A DNA stretch of 64,000 bases from Eledone cirrhosa (GCA_964016885.1 OZ024740.1:244218001-244282000), one strand, 5' to 3'. Positions 799-34,424 are shown, counted from the first letter of the stretch. Notes: a model not told the origin generated them from the letters alone. Made by a program: numbers and translations.

Positions 799-888
799 CA
801 CACACACACACACACAGAAACACACACACATATATATATATATATATATATATATATAAGATCAAAAGATGGTTAAAGGAGTTCAATA

Positions 889-958
889 TATTTTATTATG
901 CGCATTTCAAAAACAAACATCATCAAACAATAATATTTGTGTTTTCATCAGATAAAAC
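889..958 (-). ncRNA. Hammerhead ribozyme (family A)
   Basis: Reverse complement of the 1081-1150 motif. Confidence 0.85.
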
Positions 959-1080
959 AGGAGAACATGATATGAAGGCTAAAAAAACACTTGTTGATAG
1001 TGCAGTTTTAAATCAACATATGTTGATTTAAAACTGCACTATCAACAAGTGTTTTTTTAGCCTTCATATCATGTTCTCCT

Positions 1081-1150
1081 GTTTTATCTGATGAAAACAC
1101 AAATATTATTGTTTGATGATGTTTGTTTTTGAAATGCGCATAATAAAATA
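1081..1150 (+). ncRNA. Hammerhead ribozyme (family A)
   Basis: gttttat CTGATGA [stem II] GAAA tgcgca TA ataaaat, with self-complementary stem III ATGCGCAT. Confidence 0.88.
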
Positions 1151-1423
1151 TATTGAACTCCTTTAACCATCTTTTGATCTTATATTATGCATACTCCAGT
1201 CCCACAAACTGTAGAGTGCTTCTTATCCGATATCTGCATTGCTTTATTGTACTACAATAAAACTCACCTCCTACATATATATATATATATATATATATAT
1301 ATATATATATATATATATATATATATAAATGAAGTATTTCCGTAGGAAAGATAAAGGAAAAGAGAGTGCTCTATGTAGGCTACAGAGCTTTTTAGTTATG
1401 TAATAAACAGTATAAGATAATTA

Positions 1424-1487
1424 ATTCATTTACCAGTGGTTTCTTGAAGACAGATATTTATATCTGTCTTCAGTCGTCAGAATGAAT
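1424..1487 (-). ncRNA. Hammerhead ribozyme (family F)
   Basis: attcatt CTGACGA c-tgaagacagata-taaa-tatctgtcttca-a GAAA ccactgg TA aatgaat. A second copy with a mutated core lies at ~3005-3067. Confidence 0.9.
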
Positions 1488-29143: not shown

Positions 29144-29204
29144 TATTTTATTATACATATTTCAAGGGTACCAATATTTTGGTACGCTTTCGTCAGATAA
29201 AATA
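29144..29204 (-). ncRNA. Hammerhead ribozyme (family B, left pLTR)
   Basis: Reverse complement of 32450-32510. Confidence 0.87.
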
Positions 29205-30563
29205 CAATATTTGGTTTAAAGATACTGACATATCTTCATATGAACTTTATGTTATAAGTTCATTGTAGATAGTGATTAAATTTTCAAAACTCAGGATAAA
29301 TATGCTAATGAGGATAACATTAAAACTGAAAAGGACCGTTAAGTTTAGACGCTAGATAGATTTGAAATAATTATCTAAATTGTTTTTTAAAGGAGGTTTA
29401 CTATTAAAATTGAAAAAAAAAAAAAAAAAGTTAAAGTTACTTTAGGAATATTTATAGAAATATGCATATATACATCCAAACATATTTACATGGGTATAGA
29501 AAGAATGGAAAAATTATTTATTTTTTTTAGACATTAAATCTAAAAATAATACAAAATTTATACAAATGGATATAGCTAACTACTATTCTTCAATAACTCC
29601 TAATTTACTTAATAAAGCACTATACACATCAATACATACTGATATATCTAGCAAAGAAATAAACATTATTTTAACTGCACGTAAAACTCTTATTGAATTT
29701 AACAATGATCTCTGGACTAGAGCTGATAGACAGAACAATTTCGATATCCCAATGGGCTCCTCTGGCTCAGCTCAGATAACAGACTTGGTTGGAATATTCA
29801 TTCTTAATGCATTATATAAGAAATTGCTGGAGGTTTATATCGTGATGATGAGTTATTTATAGTTGATAAACATAACAATAGTGAACTTAGCAGAAAAAAG
29901 AAAATTATCATAGACATTTTAAAAATAATTATGGCCTTAAATTAGAAATAGAAAATGATTGTTAATTTCTTAGATGTTACACTAAACTTTAACTCAGGCC
30001 TATATTACCAGTTCCATAAGATTAATGAAAACCTAAACTACGTTAGCTTCTACTCTAACCACCCTAGAAATGTTCAAAAAGCTATAGTTAATAATGTCCA
30101 GCAAAGACTATCTAGACTCTCAGCTAATAAAAATATATTTGATAACAAAGCAGATTATTACAATAACGCTCTACACAGAGCTGGATAAATAATACAATTA
30201 ACTACATAGATAAGAATAGTATACACCAACCTCCTAAAGTTTATTATAATATTAATAATAAACAAATTAACGAAAATAATAAATCAAATTAAAAGCTAGA
30301 ACTAGAAATATAATTTGGTATTCTCCTCCAATTTCATTAGGAATTAAGACACCTTTAGTACACCAATTCTTTAAGGCTCTAAATAAATGTTTTCCTAAGC
30401 CCCATAAGTATCACTCCATTTTTAACAGACATACAATCAAACTCTCTTACTCTACTACTATGAACATAGCACAAAATATTAATAGAATTAATAAGAATTT
30501 AAAATTAAATTCAACCCAAATAAACTCAAATAGCAATAACAATATAACTAATAACATTACGTA

Positions 30564-30745
30564 TAATAATTGTTTCTACTTTTGGCACAAGGCCAGAAAT
30601 TACCCAGTACATTACTAGTACTTTATTTTATCGACCTCGTAAGGATGAAAGGCAAAGTTAACCTCGGCGGGATTTTAACTCAGATCGTAAAGGGACGTAA
30701 CTATGCTAGAAAGCATGTCCGACCCTCTACCGATACTGCCAATTC
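30564..30745 (-). mobile_element. SINE inserted in RT-EN linker of family-B PLE
   Basis: Flanked by gtataataat, with an adjacent (AAT)n expansion. Confidence 0.87.
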
Positions 30746-32449
30746 AAGTATAATAATAATAATAATAATAATAATAATAATAATAATAATAATAATAATA
30801 ATAATAATACCGTTTCTCTAAACAACAATATTAGAAAATGTATTTGCAGAAATAACATATCATGCCCTTTACAGAATAATTGCCTAGATAGAAATTTAGT
30901 ATAAAATTCACCATAAAAACTAGAGATAGATTATATAATTATATAGGAGTTACTTCTACAAAATTTAAGGACCGTTGGTATAATCATAAACAATCTTTCA
31001 AACGATCGGACAAAACATTCTCAACCTCACTATCACAATTAATTTGGTGTTTAAAAGACAGTAATACTGACTATTCGATCTCTTGGCGAAGGATATCGAA
31101 AGCGCCTGTTTACCAGAATATGGCTCTCTCAAGAATTTGTCATCTCTGAATTGAAGAAATCTTTCATATAACTAACATCCTGGTAATATTATAAACAAAA
31201 AAAAAAAGGAAATATTAATTCCTGTTTGCATCGGTTCTCCAGAACATTTCACAATATTACAATTTATAGAAAATACTACACATGGCCTGTATAAGTTGCC
31301 TATGTGCAATATATATATCTTCGGTTGTTTTTAAAAGTTCTTAAATTTATACATAAAATACTTAATATTATCAAATTTATACATAGATATACTTATTGTT
31401 ATCAAAATCTATACATAGAAATGTTTATCTTTTTATTAATATCTAGACCATATCTACTATATGGTGCTCTGAAATCATATATGAATTTTTACTTATATTA
31501 TAATTATAATATAAATTATAATTAATTATTAGGTTAAACATTAGAACAAACAATATATCTTCAAATAATTTGAATTCTTTAAAAACACTAGAATTATCTT
31601 TTTTCTTTAATAAAAGCTTGTTTACATTTCACCTATACGAGACATTCAAACTTTACATACATGTTTAAATTTAAATTTGTATATCTAACCTTATACAATA
31701 ATCGATTATTCATAATATTATACATTTTCTCTATAAAAATTTAATTATTTTCACATTCTTAAGCTATATATAGAAAATGCATATATATCTTCACTCGGCA
31801 TATCCTACCTGTTTTCATAAGTAAACAAAATCTATATTCACACATAACTATTTATGTACTAAATAAATTTTTGAATAATATTATACAATAATCTCTTATA
31901 CTACAATACATTATATTTATTATAACTGCACTCATAATATTGAAATATACCCGTAAAATACATCCAATAGTATATATAAATAAATATAGTAAAATACATC
32001 ATATAGTATGTTTATATAAATCTTTCACATATTAAATTAATAGTTCTCAATTTAATACATTAATTTATAGTTCTCACCTAAATATTATAAATACTTCCAC
32101 ATTATAAAATTAAATAAATAAAAATAAATATAATTATTCCATTCTTTCTATACCCATGTAAATATGTTTGGATGTAAATATGCATATTTCTATAAATATT
32201 CCAAAATATCCCTAAAGTAACTTAAAATTTTTTTTTTTCTTCAATTTTAATAGCAAACCTCCTTTAAAAAACAATTTAGATAATTATTTAAAATCTATCT
32301 AGCGTCTAAACTTAATGGTCCTTTTCAGTTTTAACGTTATCCTCATTAGCATATTTATCCTGAGTTTTGAAAATTTATTCACTATCTACAATGAACTTAT
32401 AACATAAAGTTCATATGAAGATATGTCAGTATCTTTAAACCAAATATTG

Positions 32450-32510
32450 TATTTTATCTGACGAAAGCGTACCAAAATATTGGTACCCTTGAAATATGTA
32501 TAATAAAATA
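32450..32510 (+). ncRNA. Hammerhead ribozyme (family B, right pLTR)
   Basis: tattttat CTGACGA aagcgtaccaa-aata-ttggtaccctt GAAA tatgta TA ataaaata. Confidence 0.88.
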
Positions 32511-34424
32511 AATCTGGTTTTATAAAGATATTTTCCATTTATTAATATTATTGATATTAATTGTACTCCAAAAGCTGTTGAGTGCTTCTAATCTGTTATA
32601 AATTAACTTTGTTGAATAATCAACAAAACAAATAACTCATTATTTATATATATATGTACATGAGAGTGAGAGAGAGATGGATAGGGAGACTGGTTGACTT
32701 CTTTTGGACATAACTTAAGTCAAATACTTATTGATAGCAATATCCAACAGAGGAGGTGTACTCCCCTTAATAACCTGGACTTGAGATTCATACATTAATT
32801 CCACTTTACACTCATGATTATGGAGACAAAACTTTAAAAAATTAAAAGATTAAAAAAAATTAATAAGTTATAAAAGAAAATTCTGTACACACATACACAG
32901 TGCATTTGTTGCAATGCACATGCAACAGTACATGACATGCAATGCAGTGCACATGTGTTACAATGTCATTTTGTAAAACGTTTGGCAATGTTGCTTAAAA
33001 ATGCTTTCATGCAGTTTACAAGAAAAATACAGTAAAGAATTTTGAGCAAATCCAGGATTACAAAAAAAAGAGGTTTACTTTAAGGAATCCCCAACCATCG
33101 CAACCCGCCGTGGCGAATCAATAATTCTCTGTGACACCAATTATTTTAATTGATAAAAAAAAAATAGTTTTCCAAAAATTTTATAAAATCAACATTTGAC
33201 AATTTTTCTTGGGGAAATATTGCAGTTTTTATTTACAGTAAATGTTATGTTGTGGCTCTTATGCATGCCCATGGTTTGTTATGTAACATATTCACAAACA
33301 TTTTTACATTTTATCATATATTTCAAAAGTAAGAGATTATTATATTCACGCCACTTTTATTCATGCAACTGAATTTTGGTCATGATCAATAGACTGGGTT
33401 TTAGTCATGATTATTTGGTTGGGGTGACTGAATTTGAATCATGACTAGTAGATTTTCAACTGAATGTGTGTCACAGTCATTAGCTTGGCAACTGAACTTG
33501 GGTCATGACCATTAGGTTGGGAATCCATAGATCTATTTGAACTTCGACATGAGATGACATATTAAGAGTAGCTTGAGACATATTTGACAGTATAACTATA
33601 TAGTTAAATTGTCTATAATCACACACTGTCAACATGTAACCAAGATTGCATAAAAAGAACATTACTCCTATTTTAACTTTGACATGTGATGTGCTAAAAG
33701 TAGCTCTTAAATTGAGAAATGTTATTTTACAGTGATTTTACTGTTTAATCAGAGAGAGAGAAGGGCAATGACCATGACTATTTTCAGAGCCTCTGAGACT
33801 GGTGAGAGGAAAGTATCCTCAAACCAAAGACTTGGATTAAATGCTTGTAACAGAATGGACACTGCTAGAGACATAAGAACCGGGTGGTGGTGTTAAACTG
33901 GGTGACAAATTAAATCTACCAATCAAATAGGCCATTATAAGATTTGAACTTAAAACACACTCACCAAAACACACTCCAATCCCTGAACTACTGTTGAAAT
34001 GTGTCTTTCTTTTTTCAGGGGCTTCTGAGGATGGTAGAAGGGAAGGAAGAAAGTAACTTCAAACTGGAGACATGGTCTGAATACTTGTAACAGAGTGGAC
34101 TTTGCTAAAGCTACCCAAGGTTCAAGTGGCAGTGTAAGACCTGACAATAGATTATGTCTACCACCCAAGTGAGTTGCAGCAGGATTTGAACTTAAAATGC
34201 AGAGAGCAGTAACAAATGCTACAAAGCAACTCCTCCCTGATGCTCTAACAATTTCACCAATCTACTGAGCTCTAATGGTACCGCAAAAGGATGAAATGCA
34301 AAGTTGACCTTGGCAAGATTTGAACTCAGAGCACAGAACATGTATTGCAAGACATTTTGTCATTATCTCTAATGATTCTGCCAATTTGCTTCTCAGTATG
34401 TCTTTTCTACATCTACTATAATCG

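Follow-up and report, generated by a model that had tools for sequence, protein, structure and literature searches.

The window analysed here is a stretch of 64,000 nucleotides (nt) of AT-rich animal DNA from Eledone cirrhosa (contig C1:244,218,001-244,282,000, from a 3.0-Gb genome), and its positions 850-32,650 hold seven head-to-head insertions of three related repeat families, here called A, B and C, each insertion bounded by (TA)n. The three families are Penelope-like retrotransposons, or Penelope-like elements (PLEs). Each insertion has two inverted arms that differ at their outer ends: one arm is tailed and reaches the family's 3' end, at a point that we call E, and the other is tail-less and stops 79-90 nt short of E, at a point that we call X. 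All seven insertions in the window pair one E with one X. Arms that end at two fixed points 79-90 nt apart are the known PLE 'tail' signature, and we think it probable, from the arrangement of the insertions, that this signature was produced by target-primed reverse transcription from both cut strands of the (TA)n target at two fixed sites on the RNA. The arms, the features within them and a related copy are arranged as follows, with pLTR standing for pseudo-long terminal repeat and ORF for open reading frame.

854..1019, minus strand: family A, tail-less arm; X end 854/855 adjoining (TA)n 830-853; reference 1-169, 99.4%
1020..1275, plus strand: family A, tailed arm; X equivalent at 1188, tail 1189-1275, E end 1275 adjoining (TA)n
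within 1020..1275, plus strand: family A, hammerhead-like core; starts at 1088 (CTGATGA), predicted cleavage 1142/1143
1887..2008, minus strand: family A, tailed arm; E end 1887; 5'-truncated inside the pLTR; reference 137-256
2012..2088, plus strand: family A, tail-less arm; X end 2083-2088; reference 95-166
2339..2545, minus strand: family B subfamily, copy with tail; E end 2339 adjoining (TA)n
3616..3866, minus strand: family B, tailed arm
3913..4067, plus strand: family B, tail-less arm; X end 4067; separated by a 47-nt spacer from 3616..3866
5975..6237, minus strand: family C, tail-less arm; X end 5975
6253..6594, plus strand: family C, tailed arm; X equivalent ~6515, E end ~6594 (read from the continuation of the sequence)
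15753..16996, minus strand: older family A-like, tail-less arm of 1.2 kb; X end 15753-15762
17000..20359, plus strand: older family A-like, tailed copy, 5'-truncated; ORF 17022-18821; E end 20359 adjoining (TA)n
24062..24202, minus strand: family C, tailed arm; E end 24062
24197..24251, plus strand: family C, tail-less arm of 55 nt; X end 24251
29097..29529, minus strand: family B, tail-less arm; X end 29097; 444-bp inverted repeat with 32115-32557, 94%
32115..32646, plus strand: family B, tailed arm; X equivalent ~32557, tail to ~32646

The seven short-arm ends named in the original prediction (855, 2087 and 15762 in family A, 4067 and 29097 in B, 5975 and 24251 in C) were correctly placed: all are X ends and each adjoins (TA)n. 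The first insertion is the simplest, its arms 854-1019 and 1020-1185 being 100% complementary with no spacer between them. In the second, the tail-less arm 2012..2088 is ~45 nt longer on its 5' side than its tailed partner 1887..2008. The arm at 15753 is not a stub: it is 1.2 kb long, belongs as inverted arm to an insertion of 4.6 kb that ends at 20359, and pairs with 19062-20277 in a 1223-bp inverted repeat (95%).

For each family an exact word lying immediately 5' of X was searched in the window's own genome, and these words matched 11,065 (A), 30,624 (B) and 42,282 (C) times; the reversed control words had no match genome-wide for any of the three families. We read the first listed places on contig C1 together with those of the window, 105 distinct places for A, 35 for B and 42 for C, and all of them were of two kinds: the sequence either continues through the tail to E (48, 13 and 19 places) or stops at X (57, 22 and 23). 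The tail-less stops are confined to narrow intervals. In family A 57/57 lie within 8 nt and 49/57 at one position, with offsets from the first base of TACTCCAG of -5 (1), -3 (4), -1 (1), +1 (1), +2 (49) and +3 (1); in family B 22/22 lie within 11 nt (offsets -8 to +2); and in family C 23/23 lie within 3 nt, at -2 (22) or -4 (1). Each stop position is uncertain by a few nt because of the (TA)n flank and because the extension of an arm end allows one mismatch. X is followed by (TA)n in 47/57 (A), 21/22 (B) and 22/23 (C) of these arms, and E ends likewise adjoin (TA)n. The original prediction had held that the end of the tail-less arm is fixed and family-specific, 20-55 nt past the predicted ribozyme cleavage site, with the partner arm running 70-95 nt further, and the sample agrees on each point: the cleavage site lies 46 nt (A), 53 nt (B) or, by eye, ~20 nt (C) 5' of X, and the tail measures 87 nt in A (44/44 measured), 79 nt in C (14/16) and ~84-90 nt in B (9 measured). 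Scattered arm ends, named there as the contrary outcome, are clearly absent from the sampled places of all three families.

The two ends are also combined almost strictly one of each. For family A we compared 60 non-redundant loci by BLAST with a natural reference unit (L073:3117-6846, 3,730 nt; positions in it are prefixed u), in which X is u3643 and E is u3730. Head-to-head pairs make up 49 of the 60 loci, and 47 of these 49 join an E arm to an X arm, whereas about half would be expected if the site were chosen freely (binomial P ~2e-12). Family B pairs are E/X in 6/6 by exact word, and by BLAST in 7 of 9 with 2 unclear; those of family C are E/X in 10/10 by exact word, and by BLAST in 16 of 17 with 1 unclear. 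The 11 unpaired family A loci comprise five solo X-ended copies in full view (L001, L023, L038, L060 and L072), one solo E-ended copy (L022) and five that run off the fetched DNA. Tandem copies at L072 and L063 read through E into the start of the next unit, as partial tandem pLTRs, and 14/48 E junctions carry the next unit's TTA; E, the predicted 'distal' priming site, thus itself appears to be internal on longer RNAs, as X is by definition.

The inner junctions differ from locus to locus, which leads us to conclude that every pair arose in its own insertion event. Among the 49 family A pair loci, none has both flanks in common with another. Arm identity within a pair has a median of 99.3% (36 pairs, 16 of them with identical arms), against a between-locus median of 97.1%. 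The inner junctions span u315 to u3598. The commonest centre, u3471-3476, recurs with equal arm length in ~15/49 pairs, and its fillers vary by locus (none, G, CC, AGG, CATGAT, AT, TA); the solo E-ended L022 starts at the same hot spot, which is perhaps the 5' end of an abundant short RNA and perhaps the pLTR transcription start. A second hot spot lies at u2823-2863 (L030, L062 and L063), near a ~110-bp repeat of the 3' untranslated region (UTR). The inner ends of the two arms are coupled, differing by <=20 nt in 27/49 pairs and, among pairs with arms >500 nt, by <=40 nt in 4/12, as would fit two complementary DNAs (cDNAs) running off one RNA end or a polymerase switching onto the end of the other cDNA. 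Some centres have no spacer at all (L018, L024, L028, L042 and window 1019/1020). Arms overlap in 47/49 pairs, the overlap being <=2 nt only in L025 and L031. The tail-less arm extends further 5' than the tailed arm in 12/49 pairs, by up to 1.5 kb (L040 and L074), and so the predicted 'short inverted arm' is not in every pair the shorter of the two.

Two minor observations concern arm ends. A solo X-ended arm of 73 nt at L023:1484-1580 leads into a 22-nt direct repeat of a portion of its own sequence, after which the (TA)n resumes; this may reflect template slippage at the inner end. We also considered whether the second polymerase collides with the first primer in tailed arms that stop at or near X (L025, L031, L036, L065 and L069; 5/48), and rejected this: ~5/14 short truncated arms do so against 2.5 expected, which is not significant.

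An antisense copy on each flank, joined head-to-head, calls for priming on both target strands or for something equivalent. A fold-back route would be one in which reverse transcription starts from E only; the cDNA snaps back at its 3' end, is copied back as far as X, where it stops, for example against a protein bound to the tail, and is then linked with the remaining (TA)n end. Such a route would necessarily leave each pair with one E and one X, as seen in 47/49, and the symmetric centres that it would leave are common, given the 27 pairs whose inner ends nearly coincide. It cannot, however, supply the sequence that the X arm has and the E arm lacks in the 12 pairs just described, since a copy of the E cDNA does not contain it, and fold-back alone is therefore excluded for these. 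The five solo X-ended insertions have no E arm from which to fold back, and the spacer-free centres would need a palindromic turn under self-priming. We regard fold-back as an unlikely source of the pairs in general. The predicted alternative of priming by both cut ends, with the two cDNAs joined head-to-head, is supported by the geometry, by the 12 pairs, by the five solo X insertions and by in vitro data on a Poseidon PLE; the weak part is the microhomology rule attached to it. Nor does the overlap of the arms require two templates or a fold-back, as had been argued, because one RNA copied twice with strand displacement fits equally.

What places X where it is appears to be the structure of the tail. 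In all three families X sits 0-5 nt 5' of a conserved hairpin made of ACUC, a 3-4-bp stem, a 2-nt bulge and GAGU. Its inner stem, counted by script, carries compensatory changes: CAGU/ACUG in A, CAA/UUG or CAG/CUG in B and UACU/AGUA in C. On 26 tails aligned by MAFFT, RNAalifold found no more than the invariant 4-bp ACUC/GAGU stem, since that alignment does not bring the inner stems of the families into register. A second hairpin lies downstream in the A and B tails. The rival view, which was also the site rule of the original prediction, is that microhomology alone decides, the second (TA)n end annealing at the most TA-like stretch of RNA, with X being that place in each family. X is indeed TA-rich in every family (TATATTAT, GTATAT and CCTAT), it is followed by (TA)n in most arms, as counted above, and small shifts of the end track the local TA content, as in L027 and L028 at TATGTATA; both X and E carry 1-5 nt able to pair with (TA)n. 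However, TATAT/ATATA occurs at 14 sites in the family A unit, which also contains a longer ATATAT(TAT) run at u2843, and in the 49 family A pairs neither the 13 sites other than X nor the u2843 run is ever the outer end of the partner arm. Copies with ATATAT 30 nt upstream (AAATATATTGAA) still end at X, family C has only ~3 nt in common with the target, and X keeps its distance of 0-5 nt from the hairpin in every family. The starts published for a PLE also lack target homology in the account given of them (PMC11167929). Pure microhomology thus looks improbable to us, and as a rule for the site it is weak; a TA match is at most a helper in site choice. Since X is fixed near the hairpin and other TA sites go unused, we read the tail as a putative structured module for docking, flanked on either side by a single start site.

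Could the pairs instead be inherited palindromes, hairpin units of a self-copying non-autonomous element whose X end next to (TA)n was copied from a master? The ~15 pairs with a common centre and arm length have the look of such copies, and L037 and L064 have a common 19-nt spacer. Even at the common centre, though, the fillers differ; over 25 pairs have centres of their own, spread between u315 and u3598, and yet all end at X; ORF-bearing arms of 0.5-4 kb have the same ends; and the start of L022 at the hot spot fits the 5' end of an RNA. We give inheritance very little weight. A DNA transposon of the foldback kind or a miniature inverted-repeat transposable element, with terminal inverted repeats and a TA target, would account for short palindromic units in TA-rich targets and can be set aside, as one end exceeds the other by a constant 79-90 nt, the arms represent the 3' part of a unit that codes for a reverse transcriptase (RT), the inner junction varies between copies and no transposase was found.

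As to the identity of the elements, family A has coding copies, and the ORF of the reference copy (L073:3129-5591) is 821 codons long; the window ORF 17022-18821 has 83% amino-acid identity to its residues 225-821. Pfam gave no match to the whole L073 ORF, to a 334-residue piece of its RT part or to eight homologues, and a profile search of PDB sequences gave one weak match, to a retron RT (E 0.012). The protein collection contains 25 homologues of the ORF, among them one that its source assigns to Argonauta hians. An AlphaFold model of the 821 residues (predicted local distance difference test, pLDDT, 80.2; predicted template modelling score, pTM, 0.77) has as its top Foldseek matches the DRT2 RT, several TERTs, retron RTs, LINE-1 ORF2p and a group II intron RT (E 7e-8 to 1e-5), with telomerase TERT prominent among them (E 1e-7). 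As modelled, the coding copy carries a reverse-transcriptase fold. Read by eye, the ORF shows an N-terminal RWT motif, HSDKTNN (DKT), CNCRIKNKC (CxCx5C), CNLC (CxxC) and CLH (CxH), and in its C-terminal region the motifs LIYEC...YFGST...R...E, with the CC pair absent between LIYEC and YFG; a search of PDB sequences with the C-terminal domain found no match. The marks that Craig et al. 2021 (PMC8557442) print for the Hydra clade of PLEs, in the passages that define it, are DKT, CxCx5C, CxxC, CxH, hammerheads and insertion in (TA)n, and by these motifs the elements fit that clade, an assignment based on motifs read by eye. The likeness to those passages (PMC8557442) extends to DKT in place of DKG, the CxCx5C linker, CxxC and CxH around the endonuclease (EN) core, the lack of CCHH in the EN and of a CC pair between its GIY-like and YIG-like motifs, the predicted hammerhead-like core, a single ORF, the (TA)n target and reports from molluscs; the clade is generally <3 kb, whereas the unit here is 3.7 kb, and its RWK motif is RWT here.

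The predicted hammerhead-like core is made up of CUGANGA, a long helix II, GAAA, a 6-nt insert that is palindromic in most cases, UH and a helix I of 8 bp. It occurs in 91/105 family A arms (the 6-nt insert being palindromic in 91) and in 25/35 family B arms, and the three family C copies long enough to show a core have a non-canonical 5' core, CUUGAAAAG or CUUGAAGAG. As far as its printed description goes, the minimal PLE hammerhead type of Cervera and de la Pena 2014 (PMC4209133) fits this core.

Several side observations touch the elements themselves. The L073 ORF is very asparagine-rich, with a disordered low-complexity insert of ~75 residues (residues ~600-680, pLDDT ~30) between its RT and EN parts, and recalls the N-rich inserts described for rotifer Penelope elements (PMC3846280, in the part concerned with them). 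For one of its homologues the source gives the name GATA zinc finger protein, probably on account of this composition. The ~110-bp repeat of the family A 3' UTR (u2819-2928) is present once in L073 and in four or five tandem copies in L072 (L072:2742-3441). The centres of the PLE palindromes at 970-1069, 3827-3951 and 6204-6286 score as plant or animal microRNA precursors in a permissive Rfam search, with E down to 4e-11 and all below the gathering score; PLE palindromes are likely a source of false microRNA calls in such genomes.

Twin priming of L1, a model attributed to Ostertag and Kazazian in 2001, offers a parallel. There the second target strand reportedly primes on the RNA upstream of the first, giving an inverted 5' part and a direct 3' part, and the two parts are said not to overlap and the internal site to vary. 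Upstream priming by a second strand is the likeness; the differences are that the arms overlap in 47/49 pairs here, so that the L1-type arrangement of adjacent, non-overlapping parts does not hold, and that the internal site is fixed. Three papers that name both 'Penelope-like' and 'twin priming' do so, judged from their listing, only in passing.

The closer parallel lies within the PLEs, where one pLTR of an inverted pair carries a 'tail' (PMC3846280, PMC8557442, in the parts that describe pLTRs), and so the idea of double priming, though largely right, is not new: the pattern is the published one. The architecture of EN-containing (EN+) PLEs, in the descriptions given by Arkhipova et al. 2013 (PMC3846280) and Craig et al. 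2021 (PMC8557442), has like ours partial tandem pLTRs, a head-to-head inverted copy, an extension at one end, palindromes at the inner junction and a (TA)n target, and the latter paper, in the part concerned, gives a like scheme of inverted pLTRs and names (TA)n targets. In the printed passages of the two papers the tail is 30-40 nt, against 79-90 nt here; it is called optional, or 'often' one-sided, whereas we find one of each in 47/49 pairs; and the tail is shown here, unlike there, to begin with a conserved hairpin. From the biochemical side, Frangieh et al. 2024 (PMC11167929) report, in the portion on which we draw, that the protein of a Poseidon PLE cuts and extends both strands in vitro, and that its reverse transcription starts at two internal RNA sites without target homology, the tail being the stretch between them. 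This element, Poseidon_Ac (PAc), resembles ours, in that same account (PMC11167929), in having two discrete starts that bracket the tail, in using both strands, in initiating within the RNA and in having an AT-rich target. It is of a different clade and a biochemical system, whereas ours is known from insertion sequences alone, and its starts lie in an AC-rich stem-loop, where ours have at both sites the few nt that could pair with (TA)n (PMC11167929, as described there). Animal non-LTR (long terminal repeat) retrozymes are, in the text of a preprint by Li et al. 2026 as far as it concerns us, non-autonomous PLE derivatives; they are likewise short, hammerhead-bearing, pLTR-derived units of very high copy number, but form direct tandem arrays where we see mostly single inverted pairs. 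Three same-strand family C words ~210-230 bp apart at G000:C1:15465568-15466029 form one direct tandem array, a retrozyme-like arrangement. What differs here from the known signature is the length of the tail, the possible short homology, the near-strict pairing of one of each, the conserved hairpin and the occurrence in another clade.

We picture priming at two fixed RNA sites as follows. The element's protein would bind the structured RNA tail and cut both strands of a (TA)n site, and that this protein cuts and extends both strands we infer from the geometry of the product alone. One 3'-OH would then prime just 5' of the tail, at X, and the other just 3' of it, at E, which would be internal on RNAs that read into the next unit. 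Both cDNAs would run toward the 5' end of the RNA, often to the shared end at u3471-3476, probably the pLTR transcription start. One polymerase might then switch to the other cDNA at its 3' end, or the two ends might be joined, giving the inverted repeat and closing the gap. The TA patches at X and E may help to seat the (TA)n primer without choosing the site. A more specific proposal is that the two starts are a fixed pair, with one ribonucleoprotein on the two-hairpin tail of a single RNA firing once per side, one start per cut strand. We offer it tentatively, as a possibility less probable than its opposite; if it were true, concerted double reverse transcription would be the normal route of integration, and the inverted pLTR with its one-sided tail would be an obligatory product and no by-product.

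A number of points weigh against priming at two fixed sites or against the assignments on which it leans. The pairing has two exceptions: L045 is X/X, and L075 is E/E, though nested B and C word matches lie in the ~3.5 kb between its arms. The excess of solo X ends over solo E ends, five to one, is not predicted by this model; it may be that priming starts primarily at X and that E serves mainly in company with X, although the numbers are small. In PAc the strands are alike in their use of start sites, in the account available (PMC11167929), while each takes one site here, and for that reason the near-strict pairing of one of each is unexplained in print. The short TA matches at X in all three families leave room for a role of microhomology. 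The last 132 residues of the L073 ORF match the GIY-YIG profile PF01541 weakly, at E 0.0012 and 19.5 bits, under the Pfam cut-off of 22.6 bits, and no Rfam hammerhead model matches at the gathering score or, on positions 800-6600, at E up to 10. Finally, the stops were read on one contig, over its first 56 Mb for family A and its first 6 Mb for families B and C, and only in arms that carry the exact word, which is a sample and no full census.

These findings leave existing knowledge of the PLE class unchanged. Integration of PLEs is, though, still poorly understood, and the sole biochemical PLE system of which we know is one Poseidon element. Tens of thousands of insertions of another clade in one genome amount to a large natural record of an open mechanism. 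They appear to record, in vivo, the use of both start sites in one event and arms built anew each time, and the hairpin common to the three families shows the tail to be a conserved RNA structure. The contrasts of hairpin against TA patch, and of one RNA against two, are thereby opened to test. The paired ends also provide a rule for annotating such elements, in which the mirrored halves mislead repeat finders and produce spurious microRNA-like hairpin matches.

Elsewhere in the window, other open frames of 176-319 codons lie at 9188-10147 (minus strand), 11232-11933 (minus strand), 42977-43721, 48151-48828 (minus strand) and 62560-63090 (minus strand), and the 319-codon frame has no Pfam match. 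A further repeat, with a (CAT)n head followed by GTTTAACGTCC, often stands directly against an X or E end or in the same (TA)n tract (24500-24660 in the window; L016, L111, L116, L124, L125 and L128), and may share its (TA)n target or machinery with the PLEs.

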